Positions 5,277 through 40,185 of a stretch of DNA of 40,766 nucleotides are shown piece after piece. This DNA is from Kagunavirus LF7074P3. The notes below the pieces were generated by a model. The model saw nothing but the letters and a program-made list of their open reading frames with translations, did not search any database and had not been told where the DNA came from. Position numbers and translations under genes: made by a program. The stretch lies in sequence record OZ035791.1. One strand, 5' to 3'. Numbering within the stretch: position 1 is the first letter of the stretch; each line of letters starts with the position of its first letter.

Positions 5277-5903
5277 ATGAGCGAAGAAGTGAAAGACGAA
5301 ACTATCGAACAACAAGAGACTAAGACCACGTTTACCAAAGAAGAAGTTGACGCGCTGGTATCCGGTCTTAAAGCTAACAACGAGAAACTCTTGTCTGAAA
5401 AGAAAGCTGCCGCCGCTGCCGCGAAAGAAGCCGCAGATGCGAAGCTGAAAGCCGAACAGGAACGCGCAAAACAGAACGGCGAACTTGAGGCATTCGAGAA
5501 AACGTTGCGCAGTCAGTATGAGCCAGTACTCGCCGAGAAAGACGGTAAGATTAGCAAAATGGCTGAGCGTATCCTCGGCGCAGAACGTAAATCAGTTATC
5601 AGCCAGTTGTCTGGCATGTTGATTGATGCGAGCGCAGCGGATATTATCGCTATGATGGTCAAGACCGAATTTGACGGCGATGACGTTGTGACCAAGTTCA
5701 CAGGTGCAGATGGTAATGTCATCACCACCGACGCAGAGCAATTTAAAAAGTATCTGCGTGAGCACAAAGCATTTTCGCATCTGATTAAAGCAGATGCAGC
5801 AACCGGCGGCGGGGCTTCCGGTAACAAAAATTCTACTGGCGGGGCCGGTGGTGCGGACGTAATCCAGCAAAAACTTAACGCCAAATACGGCAAACGAGGA
5901 TAA
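5277..5903 (+). CDS. head scaffolding protein (putative)
   Basis: ATG 5277 with RBS AGGGGA; Ala/Glu/Lys-rich coiled-coil-like 208-aa protein directly upstream of capsid gene. Confidence 0.6.
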   Translation: MSEEVKDETIEQQETKTTFTKEEVDALVSGLKANNEKLLSEKKAAAAAAKEAADAKLKAEQERAKQNGELEAFEKTLRSQYEPVLAEKDGKISKMAERILGAERKSVISQLSGMLIDASAADIIAMMVKTEFDGDDVVTKFTGADGNVITTDAEQFKKYLREHKAFSHLIKADAATGGGASGNKNSTGGAGGADVIQQKLNAKYGKRG

Positions 5904-5909
5904 CAGAAT

Positions 5910-6878
5910 ATGTCTCTGTCAGATATGAAGGTTTATAACGACGATATCGTCGGTACCACTATCGAACTGCTTGGCCAGAAAACTGACCAGTTTAACGCAG
6001 CCTCCGGTGGCGCAATTGTACTGTCTACCGCTTCATGGCGCGGTGACTTCTCCCGTGAGTCTTTCTTTAACCAGATTGCCTCCGCTAAACGCCGCGTTGA
6101 CCGTTACGCCGATATCGCGTCTCAGGCAGCTACCGCGCTGACTCAGGGCGAGCATGTAGGCGTTAAAGTCGCTGGCGGCTTCGGACCGGTACTGTTCGAG
6201 CCTGCGCAAATGACCTGGCTGAACGAAGACCCGGCGAGCGCGATTCGTGCTATCTCCGAAGGGTTCTCTGACGCACTGTTAGCTGACCAGCTTAACACCG
6301 CTGTTGGTGCCGCCGTTGCCGCGGTATCAGGTCAGACTGCACTGGTTAACGATGTATCCGCGACCGCTGGCTTGACCCTGAACGTGCTGAACAACAGCCA
6401 CGCTAAATTCGGCGACCAGTCTCAGTTGTTGGTCACTGACATCATGACCGGCGCGGCCTACCACACTCTGGTGGACAAAGCGCTGACCAACGCAAACCAG
6501 TTGTTCGTTGCTGGCAACGTTATGGTTGTCGATGTTCTCGGCAAGCGTTACGTAATCTCTGACATTCCTGCGCTGTACGAGGCCGGTACTCCGAACAAGA
6601 CTAAGGTCCTGTCCGTAGTTGCAAACGGCATCATCGTTGATAATGCTTCTGACATTATCAGCAACATTGACACCAGCAACGGTAACACCCGCATCCAGAC
6701 CACCTGGCAGGCGGACTACAGCTTCGGCCTGAAACTGAAAGGCTACAGCTGGGACGTTACCAACGGCGGTAAATCTCCGCTGGACGCAGAACTGTTCACC
6801 GCGACTAACTGGGACAAAGCTGTTGCCGAGAACAAGCACACCCTCGGTACTCTGGCAATCGCCGACGCAGACCTGTAA
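5910..6878 (+). CDS. major capsid protein (positional call)
   Basis: 322-aa ORF after scaffold, followed by strong terminator; typical late-operon position. Confidence 0.65.
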   Translation: MSLSDMKVYNDDIVGTTIELLGQKTDQFNAASGGAIVLSTASWRGDFSRESFFNQIASAKRRVDRYADIASQAATALTQGEHVGVKVAGGFGPVLFEPAQMTWLNEDPASAIRAISEGFSDALLADQLNTAVGAAVAAVSGQTALVNDVSATAGLTLNVLNNSHAKFGDQSQLLVTDIMTGAAYHTLVDKALTNANQLFVAGNVMVVDVLGKRYVISDIPALYEAGTPNKTKVLSVVANGIIVDNASDIISNIDTSNGNTRIQTTWQADYSFGLKLKGYSWDVTNGGKSPLDAELFTATNWDKAVAENKHTLGTLAIADADL

Positions 6879-23085: not shown

Positions 23086-23111
23086 AAAAGGCCCCTTACG
23101 GGGCCTTTCTT
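23086..23111. terminator. bidirectional rho-independent terminator
   Basis: AGGCCCC-TTAC-GGGGCCT hairpin with A-run upstream and T-rich run downstream, between convergent modules. Confidence 0.8.
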
Positions 23112-23189
23112 CACTTCTCTGTTAAACACTCTGCTAACAGCACCGTGTAACCAATCAAATCGATTAACGTGTCGGTCGGGTCGCTGCCG

Positions 23190-23381
23190 TTATCCTTGCT
23201 GCACTGAATGCTGGATACCCCTACAGTTTCGAGAATCTCTTTTGCTTTCATTAATATTCTCCAGTACAAACGACAGTTGCGCATTAGCGGCGTCTCTCTG
23301 TTGCCGTAGTCGTAGAACCTCCTCCTCAAGTTCCTTGATACGTTTTTGCAAAGCTGGAATCGGGGCTATGATGTTCATCAT
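23190..23381 (-). CDS. hypothetical protein (coiled-coil-like)
   Basis: 63-aa ORF with RBS GGAG and ATGA overlap with upstream gene; preferred over overlapping 23111..23329. Confidence 0.4.
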   Translation of the reverse strand: MMNIIAPIPALQKRIKELEEEVLRLRQQRDAANAQLSFVLENINESKRDSRNCRGIQHSVQQG

Positions 23382-23572
23382 TCGAACTCCACAAGGTCGT
23401 TGCCGTTAGCAGAGCCTATCTCAAAATAGCCCGTTTCATCATTGTAACCCGCGAAAAACACAGAGCCGTACTCACTAAAAACACGAAATCCGCCACCAGC
23501 AAACTCCGCTGTATATTCCTTACCTTCTTTGAACACTGACGACATTTCTGAGCTTACGCAAAACAATTTCAT
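23378..23572 (-). CDS. hypothetical protein
   Basis: 64-aa ORF, start/stop coupled to helicase gene. Confidence 0.4.
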   Translation of the reverse strand: MKLFCVSSEMSSVFKEGKEYTAEFAGGGFRVFSEYGSVFFAGYNDETGYFEIGSANGNDLVEFE

Positions 23573-24993
23573 TTCTTACCTCGTCTCTTCATGTAATTAA
23601 GCAACTCTTCCTGTACCGATTTCTTCTCGTCCGTACGCGCGGCAACAACCTCGTCCAGCGTGTCTTTAGCGACTATGTGATACAGGAACACAGGGCGCCC
23701 ATGCCCGGCCTGCTTCTGGCGCACTGGGCCTATACGCTCAACAACCTGCAAATAGTGTTCAAGGTTCCAGCCTTGCGAAATAAACGCCAGATGGTGTCCG
23801 CCGTCCTGTAAATTCAAACCATGCCCGGCTGACGCAGGATGTACACACAAAATCTCTATCTCGCCGCGGTTCCACGCGTCCATCTGCTTATTACCCTTAG
23901 CACCTTTGGCAAACGCCTGTGCCTGCGGGAATCGCTTAAGGATGCGCTCCAGTTCGTGCTTGAACTGATAGGCTACCAGTAATGGCGCACCCTGCAACTC
24001 CTCAACAATGGACTCAAGCGCATCCAGTTTCGTGTCGTGCACCTTCTCCCAGTCTTTCGTTGCTTCGCCATCAGGCCCCGACACATACACGGCACCAGAT
24101 GCAATTTGCAGGCACTTAGACGTCTTCGCCGCAGCGTTAGCCGCTTCAACTTCTCCGCTCTCCAGCTCCGCGAATAGCTTCTCCTCCATATCGAGGTACG
24201 CCTGCCGCGCTTTCTTCGGCAGGTCGATTTCAACCGGTACGATAACAGGCGCTTCACACCCAAACCACTCTGCGGCGTCAATCGTGAGACTAATGTCTTT
24301 CATCTTCTGGTGGATTTCATTATCCGCACCAGGACGCGCATGATACTCCCGCGCCATCGCCGACTTACCTTTTTGCACAGAGTTGAACCAGCGGTCGGTG
24401 AACGCAGTGTACGATGAACCGAGGCGCTCGCCAGCGTCGATAAACCAGTTCTGGCCCCACAGGTCTTTGAGGCCGTTAGGCGACGGTGTGCCCGTCAGAT
24501 TGATGAAACGCTTAACTTTACCGAACGCCACTTTGCTGAGCGCCTTTGCCCGCTTGCTACCACCAGAACGGCTACGGAATGACTTCAGTTTCGTACTCTC
24601 ATCCGCAACGATAACCGTAAAAGGCCAGTCGTCTTTGCCGTAGTAGTCAATCAGCCACTCGATAACTTCGTAGTTGGTACACACCACGTTAGCATCTGAC
24701 TCCAGCGCCGCGATGCGGCGCTTCTCTGAACCTGTTGCATCTACGACACTCAGACATGGGAAGTCCCAACGTGCCTGTTCTGCAGGCCACGTACCGGAAG
24801 CAACACGTAAAGGAGCCAGAATTAACACGCGGTCGTCATCATTAAGTTGGCCGTTGCGGAACAGTCGGTTGAGTACCCACAACGTTGCGGAACTTTTGCC
24901 CGCGCCCATCGAAGCCCAAATATTACAGCGAGGATGCCGCAGCATGAATGAAGTCATGAGCTTTTGGTACTCTCGACGGATAAATTTAGACAT
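23569..24993 (-). CDS. SNF2/DEAD-like superfamily-2 DNA helicase
   Basis: Motifs GAGKS (Walker A), ADEST (DExx), LTGTP; ATG at 24993 (RBS AAGGG) preferred over TTG 24999. Confidence 0.8.
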   Translation of the reverse strand: MSKFIRREYQKLMTSFMLRHPRCNIWASMGAGKSSATLWVLNRLFRNGQLNDDDRVLILAPLRVASGTWPAEQARWDFPCLSVVDATGSEKRRIAALESDANVVCTNYEVIEWLIDYYGKDDWPFTVIVADESTKLKSFRSRSGGSKRAKALSKVAFGKVKRFINLTGTPSPNGLKDLWGQNWFIDAGERLGSSYTAFTDRWFNSVQKGKSAMAREYHARPGADNEIHQKMKDISLTIDAAEWFGCEAPVIVPVEIDLPKKARQAYLDMEEKLFAELESGEVEAANAAAKTSKCLQIASGAVYVSGPDGEATKDWEKVHDTKLDALESIVEELQGAPLLVAYQFKHELERILKRFPQAQAFAKGAKGNKQMDAWNRGEIEILCVHPASAGHGLNLQDGGHHLAFISQGWNLEHYLQVVERIGPVRQKQAGHGRPVFLYHIVAKDTLDEVVAARTDEKKSVQEELLNYMKRRGKK

Positions 24994-24995
24994 AA

Positions 24996-25190
24996 TCAAC
25001 CCTTAATGTAGAGTACCAGCTCTTTACGCCCGAACGCCGTAACGTTACCCGTTACATCTTCGATAACCAGTTTACCGTTTGACTCGACGTACACCGTATC
25101 AACGGCAACAGGGTGGCGGGTCTTAACGTTGAAAATCATATCGCCAGGTACGATGTCACGTGCTGGTTTGCGGTCATATTCGTGTTTCAT
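24996..25190 (-). CDS. hypothetical protein
   Basis: 64-aa ORF with RBS AAGGA, directly downstream of promoter at 25224-25252. Confidence 0.45.
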   Translation of the reverse strand: MKHEYDRKPARDIVPGDMIFNVKTRHPVAVDTVYVESNGKLVIEDVTGNVTAFGRKELVLYIKG

Positions 25191-25220: not shown

Positions 25221-25505
25221 TTAACTATAATAGCTCGCTATTAGGTCGTCAACCTGTTTAAACGAACCAACGACAAAAACATTCGCACCACGTTTACGCA
25301 TCCGCTCGTGCTCACGTAACTGGTGTGGGTCTGGCTTCGTGTTTTCGTCTTTCTTAACCTCGACGAACAAGACGATGCCGCCGGGTAGAATTACCAGCAG
25401 ATCGGGAGCGCCGGAGCGCCCCTCATAGGAAAGTTTACGAACGAGGCCGCCGATAGCCTCGAATCGCTCTTTTGCGTATTTCTGGATGCGCCCCTCTTTA
25501 GTCAT
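25221..25505 (-). CDS. VRR-NUC domain nuclease (PD-(D/E)XK)
   Basis: 94 aa; ...GAPDLLVILPGGIVLFVEVKK... matches PD..(D/E)xK core of VRR-NUC family. Confidence 0.65.
   Translation of the reverse strand: MTKEGRIQKYAKERFEAIGGLVRKLSYEGRSGAPDLLVILPGGIVLFVEVKKDENTKPDPHQLREHERMRKRGANVFVVGSFKQVDDLIASYYS
25224..25252 (-). promoter_or_regulatory. sigma70-like promoter TTGACG-N17-TATAGT (minus strand) with ATAG-N4-CTATTAG dyad in spacer
   Basis: Minus-strand gTTGACGacctaatagcgagctatTATAGTt; lies inside 3' end of VRR-NUC ORF. Confidence 0.6.
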
Positions 25506-25654
25506 GAGCGCAGAATCCAGGTAATGAAAGCCCCGCCTAGAACGGCGACACCGGCAAACTTAAAGAACAGGCCATAACAGAACATCGCGGCTATTCCTGC
25601 ACCGAGTAGCAGTGCGAGCATGGTTACTATCACCCGAAATACGAACATTGTCAT
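25502..25654 (-). CDS. small membrane protein (50 aa)
   Basis: MTMFVFRVIVTMLALLLGAGIAAMFCYGLFFKFAGVAVLGGAFITWILRS; stop overlaps VRR-NUC ATG (ATGA). Confidence 0.35.
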   Translation of the reverse strand: MTMFVFRVIVTMLALLLGAGIAAMFCYGLFFKFAGVAVLGGAFITWILRS

Positions 25655-25740
25655 AATACGCACCCCTCCCGTTTCGTATGCGCGATACCGCAGCGAGGGC
25701 AGATTCGACAGTCTTCTTCGTAGAACCAGTAAATTTTCAT
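25651..25740 (-). CDS. small Cys-rich protein (29 aa)
   Basis: MKIYWFYEEDCRICPRCGIAHTKREGCVL; ATGA overlaps on both sides. Confidence 0.3.
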   Translation of the reverse strand: MKIYWFYEEDCRICPRCGIAHTKREGCVL

Positions 25741-25868
25741 TCCAGCACCCACAGATAAATTGCGATGAATATACCCAATACGGCTACCATCATGCCGTAT
25801 CGCCCCTCATGACAGTAGACACCCGCGGCGAATCCCGCCAGTACCGCAATAATCAGTTTACTTAGCAT
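25737..25868 (-). CDS. small membrane protein (43 aa)
   Basis: MLSKLIIAVLAGFAAGVYCHEGRYGMMVAVLGIFIAIYLWVLE; ATG lies 10 nt inside the 3' end of the polymerase ORF in another frame. Confidence 0.3.
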   Translation of the reverse strand: MLSKLIIAVLAGFAAGVYCHEGRYGMMVAVLGIFIAIYLWVLE

Positions 25869-28107
25869 ATCGCTTCATCTCCGCACCTTCAGCTACAAGA
25901 GGGAACCCCTCCGCCCATTCCGGTAATTCGCACATCAATCGTTCCAGTTCTGCTACATTATATTCCGGTGAATCTGGTGTCTCGCAGATAATCTCATCGT
26001 GTACGTGAAGTACAATCGGGTAGCCGTTTGCTTCTACGTTCAGCAGGGCATTAGCCAGCAAATCGCGGCACAGCGCCTGAGTGCAGTTTTCCACCAGTTT
26101 GCCTGAGTACGTGTACTGGAATCCCCACTGACGAGTTAACTGGTTCTCCCCCTGATACTTGATGCGCACGTTAGTAGAAACTTTCCCGTCTTCGTCCGTC
26201 TCTTTCGATACGCTCAATCCGACGCCAGGGTAAGACATTACGCGGCCTGACGGCAACGTCATACGCAACCACCAACCAGCGACTTTGTTGCCGTTGTTGT
26301 CTGTCTCCACGTTACGCGAAAACTTAACGCCGCGCGGCCCCGCGGTGAACTCTTTACCGGGATTGCGGATAGCCGCCATAGCTGCGTCTTCAATATCTCG
26401 CCAGAAAGCTACTGTTTCAGGATGAGACTCGCGCCACATACGCTTGATAGCGTCGCAGGTACGCCACACTTTCTTGTCCAGAATATATGATGGTCGGTCA
26501 TCTTTTTCACCGGGACGTGGTGGTCTCTTGGCTTCCTGAATACGCGCCCACTCATAACCCCGCGCGGTAGCGGCCCATATATGGCCTGGGAAAGTACCGT
26601 CCATTGTTTTAGCCATATCAAAAAGGTTTAAGCCGAGGTTTTTAGCAAACTGAACGAAAGCACCGACACCACCTGCATAGCCGAGGCCCAATTCACATGC
26701 TTTACCAATCTGGCGCAGGTCACTACGGCTTTCGAGAATGTAATCAGGGTCCATGCCAAACATCTTACCTGCAGTTACGCAGTAAATATCCAATCCCGCA
26801 CGGAAGGTATCTAGCGCGGTTTCTTCTCCTGCCAGCCATGCCAACCCGCGTCCTTCGACGTTAGAGTAATCGGCGACTACAAACTTATGTCCGGCTTCCG
26901 GTATGATGCAACTACGCACCGTCGACGCCGTTAGCTTGGCTACATCAAAACGGCGATGCGCACGACCTTTAAACAACAGGTCGATTCCGTAGGACAATGG
27001 GTGTGTTACTCTCCACCAGTCCTTCTCTGACATCCAGTCATAACGTACTTTCTTCTTTTTATTCTTCGGGTCGTCGTGATAGTACCCGCGCGCCAGGTTC
27101 TGCGGCTGGAAGCCTTTACCCGCAAACCGTAATGTACGCTTTGCCCCACCGTACTGGATGCAACCGCGGCGTCGGTCGTCCGACGAGCGACCTAACAGCA
27201 GCGGGTTATATTTCGTTGACGCGGTAGACGCGGCCCCGAGTCGCATCTCGATAATCGCGCTGGCGTCGTCCGGTAAATCGTCGTCAGCAAGCAGGTCGTT
27301 AAGCGTTGACTTCTGTGCGTTGTGAATACGGTGCGCCGGTGCGAGTTCACGCAGAATCGGAAGGAAGTCCTTTCCGGTAAGCGAGCCGCCGTATTTACGT
27401 TGGGCTTCTTCCTGTAACTGTGCTTTGTGCTTCTCCACGGCTTCAATCGCGGCTTCCGCCAGTGCCACGTCAACCTTAAACCCGCGGTCATTTATTAACT
27501 GATCCAGTTCCAGTACCCGGTCCTCGAATTCAGAGTTACCCCAACGCGGCAGCTTATAGAAGACTTCACGCATCGCAGTGATGTCGCTCACAGCGTACTT
27601 GATGAACAGAGCCCACTCGTCAGGGTGAGTTTCTGCGGTGTAGCGGCGGATTTTGTAGTTCTTTGGCGTCGGTTTAGAGAAACGCTTAATCAGCGCCTTG
27701 CCGCGTTTATCTTTCGCGTTGTCCGCGGATACACCCAGCACTTCGCACAACGCATCAAGTGAACCAGGCAGCGCGTGACGAAACGCCCAAATCATCGTAT
27801 CAATGGTGTTGCTTACCGGAATATCAAAGCCCCAGCAGTGTTTCATGATGAGCCTGTCGAACATTGAGCCGTTATGCCACACCATCTTGATGCGACTGTT
27901 TGGCTTCACCAGACGGCGTAACGCGCGGTGCAAATCCCCCGGCATGTCGCTGCCGTCTGTGCAATCCCATACCCGCACAGGCTCGTCGTCAAAAGCATAT
28001 GTACAAATAAGGACTTCGGTAGTTGGATGCTCAGCGTAAGCGTAGGAACCAACTTTCTTCAAATCGGCTTCGGAGAATGTTTCAAAGTCTAAGAACAGGT
28101 AACTCAT
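25858..28107 (-). CDS. family A DNA polymerase with 3'-5' exonuclease domain
   Basis: 749 aa; exo motif DFETFS near N-terminus; pol motifs DYSNVEGR (motif A), RQIGKACELGLGYAGG (motif B), HVHDEI (motif C). Confidence 0.9.
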   Translation of the reverse strand: MSYLFLDFETFSEADLKKVGSYAYAEHPTTEVLICTYAFDDEPVRVWDCTDGSDMPGDLHRALRRLVKPNSRIKMVWHNGSMFDRLIMKHCWGFDIPVSNTIDTMIWAFRHALPGSLDALCEVLGVSADNAKDKRGKALIKRFSKPTPKNYKIRRYTAETHPDEWALFIKYAVSDITAMREVFYKLPRWGNSEFEDRVLELDQLINDRGFKVDVALAEAAIEAVEKHKAQLQEEAQRKYGGSLTGKDFLPILRELAPAHRIHNAQKSTLNDLLADDDLPDDASAIIEMRLGAASTASTKYNPLLLGRSSDDRRRGCIQYGGAKRTLRFAGKGFQPQNLARGYYHDDPKNKKKKVRYDWMSEKDWWRVTHPLSYGIDLLFKGRAHRRFDVAKLTASTVRSCIIPEAGHKFVVADYSNVEGRGLAWLAGEETALDTFRAGLDIYCVTAGKMFGMDPDYILESRSDLRQIGKACELGLGYAGGVGAFVQFAKNLGLNLFDMAKTMDGTFPGHIWAATARGYEWARIQEAKRPPRPGEKDDRPSYILDKKVWRTCDAIKRMWRESHPETVAFWRDIEDAAMAAIRNPGKEFTAGPRGVKFSRNVETDNNGNKVAGWWLRMTLPSGRVMSYPGVGLSVSKETDEDGKVSTNVRIKYQGENQLTRQWGFQYTYSGKLVENCTQALCRDLLANALLNVEANGYPIVLHVHDEIICETPDSPEYNVAELERLMCELPEWAEGFPLVAEGAEMKRYAK

Positions 28108-40156: not shown

Positions 40157-40185
40157 GTACATCCTGCCTAATCCCCTTATATAAT
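40156..40185 (+). promoter_or_regulatory. candidate late promoter (weak -35 TGTACA, consensus -10 TATAAT)
   Basis: TATAAT at 40180-40185; upstream of terS. Confidence 0.35.

Follow-up and report, generated by a model that had tools for sequence, protein, structure and literature searches.

Three conserved minigenes at the polymerase/VRR-NUC junction of Kagunavirus LF7074P3

Introduction

Do the few hundred nucleotides (nt) between the DNA polymerase and VRR-NUC nuclease genes of the E. coli phage Kagunavirus LF7074P3 encode proteins and, if so, what might these proteins do? The window analysed here is a stretch of 40,766 nt (sequence record OZ035791.1), to which all coordinates of this phage refer, and all genes of the locus lie on its minus strand. 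A first-pass annotation, made from the sequence alone, proposed that the interval holds three tiny, translationally coupled genes of 43, 29 and 50 codons. The three open reading frames (ORFs), called minigenes A, B and C below, have the coordinates and sizes that it gave them. Minigene A (25737..25868) encodes a hydrophobic peptide of 43 amino acids (aa), MLSKLIIAVLAGFAAGVYCHEGRYGMMVAVLGIFIAIYLWVLE; minigene B (25651..25740) a soluble Cys/His-rich peptide of 29 aa, MKIYWFYEEDCRICPRCGIAHTKREGCVL; and minigene C (25502..25654) a very hydrophobic peptide of 50 aa. Each starts with ATG.

Kagunavirus phages are glycan-dependent siphoviruses of 41–44 kb, and the BASEL study that describes them as such also points to them, CM001 by name, as attractive models in synthetic biology (PMC11990801). 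We put the probability at about 0.6 that A, B and C are three genuine minigenes of a replication operon running from the polymerase to VRR-NUC, expressed and functioning in the manner proposed below; in this estimate the coding status and conservation of the genes, which are directly evident, are weighed against a function that is inferred.

Results

Relatives of the locus were assembled from 79 IMG/VR loci (numbered with the prefix L), fetched via the VRR-NUC protein, and three GenBank loci (UTI-CM001, Snoke and Bas70), and the peptides were located in them by tblastn. A was present in 47 loci and C in 26, with 43 and 50 codons respectively in every one, and B was present in 54, either with 29 codons or as a variant of 32–36 codons; start codons and the ATGA (rarely GTGA) junctions were kept across the loci. 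Pooled pairwise Nei-Gojobori ratios of non-synonymous to synonymous substitution (dN/dS), with 95% intervals from a codon bootstrap, were 0.21 (0.12–0.35) for A, 0.09 (0.04–0.18) for B and 0.19 (0.12–0.32) for C, next to 0.10 (0.06–0.14) for the last 99 codons of the polymerase and 0.13 (0.08–0.19) for VRR-NUC. In the remaining two sense frames the ratio was 0.76–2.5. These comparisons show A, B and C evolving under purifying selection in their annotated frames, at a level similar to that of the flanking enzymes, and the three are almost certainly real coding genes. The first-pass annotation had looked to the conservation of the frames in relatives, and to their substitution pattern, to decide whether three linked genes are present: the frames are kept, as are lengths, starts and stops, no upper 95% bound for the three genes exceeds 0.35, and the excess of synonymous change is confined to the genes' own frames.

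Taken by itself, the tiling of the interval is only moderately unusual: 21 of 5000 dinucleotide-shuffled sequences reach at least 95% coverage by ATG-initiated ORFs of at least 29 codons. It is the comparison with relatives that lifts it above chance. That moderate rarity would suit a reading of A, B and C as chance ORFs in a non-coding spacer, or one in which the true gene is an 81-codon ORF on the opposite strand (25620..25865, plus strand). Such an 81-aa ORF does exist, within 95 open codons in the window, and the antisense frame that shares wobble positions with a sense gene also shows a low dN/dS, as expected on geometric grounds. Since the antisense ORF spans both A and B, which lie in different frames, it cannot share wobble positions with both. 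It is shortened to 52–66 codons in many relatives, and we rejected it as a gene, its frame not being conserved among them; all neighbouring genes, moreover, are on the minus strand. The sense frames, on the other hand, hold their exact length, start and stop in relatives at dN/dS of 0.09–0.21, and both the chance and the antisense explanation are effectively excluded, being refuted by the comparative data.

Upstream of the minigenes lies the gene for a family A DNA polymerase I (25858..28107, minus strand, 749 aa), identified from the ORF list and from the annotation 'DNA polymerase I' in relatives, and downstream lies that for the VRR-NUC nuclease (25221..25505, minus strand, 94 aa), which matches phrog_93 and phrog_5702 and is annotated in relatives as endonuclease, VRR-NUC or Holliday junction resolvase. 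Between these two genes A, B and C fill a stretch of 367 nt. The successive ATGA start/stop overlaps described in the first-pass annotation are seen at the A/B and B/C junctions, and a further one joins C to VRR-NUC. The same annotation had A begin 10 nt inside the polymerase gene in another frame; the position inside the polymerase gene and the different frame (+1 relative to the polymerase) hold, but the overlap is 11 nt (25858–25868), made up of 8 sense nt and the TAA stop. A programmed frameshift fusing the polymerase to A was considered and rejected, as the bases before the A start codon vary between relatives (CGA, CGC or CGT followed by TAT) and no slippery motif is found. The ORF listing had assigned upstream GTG starts to B and C, giving products of 33 and 53 aa. 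For B this start was rejected because a TGA directly precedes the ATG in relatives such as L039, and for C because the phrog_14925 profile begins at the ATG; the conserved starts of both are taken to be the ATG codons.

A Shine-Dalgarno-like (SD-like) GGAG (25879..25882, minus strand) lies within the 3′ end of the polymerase gene, 10 nt 5′ of the A start codon, and GGAG, AGGAG or GAGG occurs at the same spacing in 45 of 47 relatives. A second SD sequence, GGAGG (25665..25669, minus strand), is embedded in the conserved B codons for ...REGC, 10 nt 5′ of the C start codon. Neither B, by a census of SD sequences in the relatives, nor VRR-NUC where it lies behind C (upstream sequence TTCTGCGCTCATGA) has a canonical SD of its own. 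In phages that lack C, VRR-NUC sits behind the GGAGG within B, so that this SD serves whichever gene follows B. Promoter-like sites in the region were not above chance (4 found, 3.1 expected), terminator-like sites likewise, and Rfam gave no match. In the collinear genome of Bas70 the minus-strand block reads primase-helicase, exonuclease, SSB, polymerase, the three minigenes, VRR-NUC, (methyltransferase) and helicase. A, B and C would thus share one polycistronic message with the polymerase, A being translated from the GGAG inside the polymerase 3′ end, B probably by termination-reinitiation at its ATGA, and C from the GGAGG within the last codons of B; VRR-NUC would then be re-initiated at the ATGA that ends C.

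An arrangement of this kind could also be read as a mere translational relay, in which the peptides are irrelevant and the ORFs do no more than hand ribosomes on from the polymerase to a VRR-NUC start without an SD, and the SD-less starts of B and VRR-NUC at ATGA overlaps, with no internal promoter above chance, agree with this. Yet the purifying selection acts on the amino acids and is comparable to that on the flanking enzymes, and VRR-NUC has no need of a relay, because without C it lies directly behind the GGAGG embedded in B and because in the more distant relatives L054, L058 and L059 the polymerase gene directly abuts it. A pure relay is effectively excluded.

The first-pass annotation implied that the three genes had gone unrecognised, which proved not to be so. 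A matches phrog_10404 (E=1e-30, residues 1–43 of 43), B matches phrog_38225 (E=1.9e-23, positions 3–32 of 36) and C matches phrog_14925 (E=1.5e-32, positions 1–50 of 50), all three families being annotated as of unknown function, and the genes are listed as hypothetical proteins in Snoke (CPT_Snoke_039–041) and Bas70 (Bas70_0039–0041), in identical order, with identical overlaps and in the same position between VRR-NUC and polymerase. The copies in the window are variants at 74–98% identity, without substantive difference. By these matches A, B and C are not new, and as hypothetical proteins they are ordinary for phage genomes. Their annotation is uneven: B is unannotated in the UTI-CM001 record, many Jerseyvirus records have no feature under B, the K1G and K1ind records lack annotation of A and/or C, and older records likewise miss A and C.

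With a 1.2-kb query around the locus, megablast returned 396 GenBank phage records. Escherichia phage UTI-CM001 ranked first (93.2%), ahead of K1H, K1G and further Kagunavirus members of the Guernseyvirinae, and Salmonella Jerseyvirus came next at about 77–85% identity. A tblastn search of 50,697 phage records gave matches to A in 223, to B in 444 and to C in 120; almost all of these are Salmonella or Escherichia Guernseyvirinae. For A and C, a large protein collection gave only near-identical proteins of 43 and 50 aa, on phage-sized contigs of about 41–45 kb, and an exhaustive HMMER search with B over 1.84 billion representatives yielded two true clusters only, plus repeat-derived junk. In the collections searched, these results show A, B and C to be restricted to the Guernseyvirinae.

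Among the relatives, B occurs in all 54 loci of the Jerseyvirus/Kagunavirus type, and its neighbours come and go: 24 loci have the architecture A-B-C, 23 have A-B, two have B-C and five have B alone. One architecture is found with different alleles of the polymerase C-terminus and one allele with different architectures, and this mismatch indicates mosaic exchange. What separates the B-alone from the A-B type is a precise gap of 129 nt in place of A, seen by comparing L039 (2294–2511) with L040 (2898–3008), and also L045, L046, L048, L016 and L037; in L039 an 8-bp direct repeat, TGATTATC, stands on either side of this segment. In the B-alone type, B is read from the ATG and first six codons of A (MLSKLIIYYF...). 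This fits a repeat-mediated deletion of A that was tolerated since B stayed translated, the direction of the change being inferred. Natural knock-outs of A also occur: in L036 its start codon is ACG, and in P0069 the call is frameshifted.

The position of C varies as well. A soluble, Cys-containing protein of 64–67 aa (MSNKPFSKKLAALVDMPEWEF..., phrog_25645, annotated as of unknown function) lies between B and C in five A-B-C loci and stands in place of C in others; it was observed at about 2652–2855 in L009, L013, L027, L028 and L034, and at 2801–3004 in L017, L049 and L050. Unrelated peptides of 23–25 aa with a single transmembrane (TM) segment, such as MTMLTTIMIIVAVFLGVAVLSKVTD, occupy the C position in L014 and L064 (2915–3001) and in L025 (2921–3001), and a PHROG lookup of them gave no match. 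The pattern suggests non-homologous replacement of C by another tiny membrane peptide. At the junction of some relatives there are also ORFs of 168–235 aa for HNH-type homing endonucleases, which can replace C; these were seen in L008 (1941–2648), L026 (2265–2780), L036 and L039 (2499–3005) and L061 (1851–2366). An intein-containing polymerase is annotated in some Jerseyvirus records, and mobile elements have a hot spot where the polymerase gene ends. No paralogy between A and C is recognisable (hhalign probability 0.4%).

The nearest outgroups, whose VRR-NUC is 55–69% identical, are without A, B and C. Besides the three in which the polymerase abuts VRR-NUC, their junctions carry a methyltransferase or a protein of 129–133 aa with an HExxH motif. 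The latter was observed directly upstream of VRR-NUC in L055 (2609–3004), L057 (2619–3008) and L061 (2610–3011), with the HExxH-like motif reading AAHECYHAM in L055 and L061 and HEAVHCAW in L057. More distant phages with the same synteny have small junction ORFs of their own (L074 2503–2763; L077 2796–3005; L070 2290–2529; L073 686–1023), in some of which a Cys-rich motif at the N-terminus (CNxNCNQGRxCP) goes together with a TM helix at the C-terminus, while others are small TM proteins; the ORFs of these four loci have no PHROG match. From the pattern of presence and absence in relatives and outgroups, B is regarded as a lineage-specific core gene of the subfamily, and A and C as accessory cassettes at a hot spot of insertion. 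By sequence comparison A, B and C behave as independent cassettes, and the polymerase/VRR-NUC junction behaves as such a hot spot.

Two of the three products had been predicted to be membrane peptides, and the strong hydrophobicity of A and C agrees with this (grand average of hydropathy, GRAVY, 1.50 and 1.75). Peptide A has hydrophobic stretches at about residues 5–19 and 26–42, separated by a nearly invariant polar loop, YCHEG(Q/R)YG, and peptide C has R7, K32 and R49 as its only charges. The best 17–19-residue sums on the Hessa scale, −3.0 for A (26–42) and −2.2 for C (8–26), are both favourable, and AlphaFold2, run on an alignment of 90 sequences, predicts a single unbroken helix for C from residue 2 to 49 (predicted local distance difference test, pLDDT, 88); topologically, C may be either a hairpin that turns at K32 or a single span. 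Judged by composition, A and C are probably located in the membrane. Neither has a lipobox ([LVI][ASTVI][GAS]C), the residues before the sole Cys being GVY in A and AMF in C, and neither has a holin-type charged C-terminal tail, A ending in ...YLWVLE and C in ...TWILRS with one charged residue each. Pfam, NCBIfam (E up to 10) and PADLOC gave nothing significant for A or C, the best match, that of A to EMC6 (E=0.008), falling below its cut-off, and profile searches of A, B and C against the PDB were negative, so that no solved structure or curated family was matched.

Peptide B is charged and soluble, with a constant part ICPRCG...H...C. All five of its candidate ligands (C11, C14, C17, H21 and C27) are kept in 45 of 54 relatives, and four are kept in the other nine. 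The CxxCxxC motif reported in the first-pass annotation was therefore only partly upheld, the peptide being Cys-rich but the motif not being conserved as a unit, with its first Cys replaced by R or F in 6 of the 54. The best Pfam match of B (E=0.26) is below its cut-off, weak PDB matches (E 0.95–7.7) cover only the six-residue CPRCG motif, and AlphaFold2 from the single sequence returned a low-confidence model (pLDDT 62). The five candidates fit a small zinc site that has one ligand to spare, and the odds that B binds zinc appear to us about even. The CPxCG knuckle is common to B (CPRCG) and to zinc-ribbon and zinc-knuckle minidomains such as those of S27ae, Nop10 and RpoM; these have two CxxC pairs, however, whereas B has one CxxC knuckle and single C/H residues.

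Discussion

Several points weigh against the reading of A, B and C as operon minigenes expressed and functioning as proposed here. The loci share ancestry, and the pairwise dN/dS values are accordingly not independent samples, though the pattern itself is unambiguous. The SD spacings of 10 nt exceed the optimum. Zinc binding by B rests on its motif, because the model of B is of low confidence, and C was modelled as one long helix and not as a hairpin. No homologs beyond the subfamily were found in the large protein collection for A and C or by HMMER for B, and Pfam, NCBIfam, PADLOC, PDB and PHROG annotations provided no functional link for any of the three. For exclusion, T4 Imm, an early exclusion protein of a lytic phage, is a precedent rather than a link.

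As to function, the suggestion of host interference in the first-pass annotation could not be established, given that the annotations in those five resources are all empty; a literature search likewise found no functional or expression data on A, B or C. Our preference, which is tentative and leaves the function more doubtful than the genes themselves, is that A and C take part in superinfection exclusion or in interference with a host membrane component. Made early together with the replication proteins, they would insert into the host inner membrane as microproteins and would most likely act there on a host membrane component or on the incoming DNA of a second phage, while being dispensable for replication itself. 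B, for its part, would be a small metal-binding peptide of the zinc-knuckle type. Accessory functions of this sort for A and C fit their patchy, swappable distribution and the replacement of C by other tiny TM peptides.

A and C share with T4 Imm and HK97 gp15, which act in exclusion at the inner membrane, the properties of being small, hydrophobic, non-structural and accessory, but are about half their size, and PHROG, Pfam and PDB revealed no similarity to exclusion proteins of this type. Exclusion factors of the Cor/Llp type are lipoproteins with a lipobox, which A and C lack. In size and hydrophobicity A and C also resemble MgrB, AcrZ and MgtS, bacterial membrane regulators of 30–50 aa, and they could plausibly act in the same manner, by binding a larger membrane protein; they differ from these in being phage-encoded and lineage-restricted, and neither NCBIfam nor Pfam, searched at E up to 10, gave a match.

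The main rivals of exclusion or host interference are counter-defence and membrane tethering of replication. A and C might counter membrane-associated host immunity or prophage-encoded exclusion rather than being exclusion factors themselves, and here the patchy cassettes, with their replacement by unrelated tiny TM peptides, are what would be expected of arms-race genes; sensitivity to some host factors does vary among Kagunavirus isolates (PMC11990801). PADLOC nevertheless found no match to a component of a known system. Known anti-defence proteins, moreover, are mostly soluble, and we regard counter-defence as rather unlikely. Less likely again is a role of A and C in anchoring the replication or recombination machinery to the membrane, B serving as a soluble adaptor, by analogy with p1 and p16.7 of phi29, which organise replication at the membrane. 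The genes do lie between the polymerase and VRR-NUC and are translationally linked to both, and L070, L073, L074 and L077 carry small TM or Cys-rich-plus-TM ORFs at the same junction. Translational linkage is, however, weak evidence for tethering, because ATGA overlaps are common throughout the genome and coupling of this kind is its norm. Unlike phi29 p16.7, in which a TM anchor is joined to a soluble domain for DNA binding or dimerisation, A (43 aa) and C (50 aa) are hydrophobic over nearly their whole length and leave essentially nothing soluble to bind DNA or protein; close relatives can also dispense with them, and nothing of the kind is present at the junction in the nearest outgroups.

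A part in lysis seems more improbable still. As small and very hydrophobic peptides, C being modelled as helical, A and/or C could in principle serve as a holin, an antiholin, a pinholin-like or a membrane-depolarising protein that times lysis, and holins and the toxin peptides Hok, TisB and Ldr are likewise short, hydrophobic and helical. The genome of the Bas70 type, however, has its own lysis cassette elsewhere: in Bas70 two holins and an endolysin are encoded at 40179–41218 and spanins at 5487–5982, and the minigenes lie at 27118–27484. A and C further end without the charged and hydrophilic tail usual at a holin C-terminus, lie in a replication operon that does not adjoin the endolysin gene, and are absent from many fully viable relatives. 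Type I toxin loci, in turn, are stand-alone units with their own promoter and an antisense RNA, whereas A and C are embedded in an operon and would be translated together with replication genes.

Superinfection exclusion or host interference by A and C thus stays our preferred, if tentative, account. If A and C do prove to be exclusion or counter-defence microproteins, they will add to the short list of phage membrane peptides of at most 50 aa with known roles. A more far-reaching and distinctly speculative possibility, which we consider doubtful, is that B is an unrecognised zinc microprotein found throughout the subfamily and working with the polymerase or VRR-NUC, in the midst of a fast-turnover hot spot at which these lytic phages swap tiny membrane peptides (A, C and those of 23–25 aa) that exclude competing phages or disarm membrane-bound host defences. 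B is kept even where what looks like a precise deletion has removed A. The annotation gap for so strongly constrained a gene (dN/dS about 0.09), which includes the closest relative UTI-CM001, is worth fixing. A and C, being naturally dispensable, are candidate genes for deletion, and the junction, at which close relatives tolerate insertions as long as about 1.1 kb, would be a safe payload site.

Two further observations concern neighbouring parts of the window. No DNA methyltransferase gene lies between a 64-aa ORF (24996–25190, minus strand) and the gene for an SNF2-type helicase (23569–24999, minus strand), and Snoke is likewise without one; in that interval UTI-CM001 and Bas70 each have a gene of about 0.8 kb for a cytosine methylase. 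Three small ORFs of 72, 63 and 64 aa (23111–23572, minus strand), one of them coiled-coil-like, lie between the tailspike gene and the helicase gene, and in Bas70 a single gene of 45 aa is annotated in this interval.

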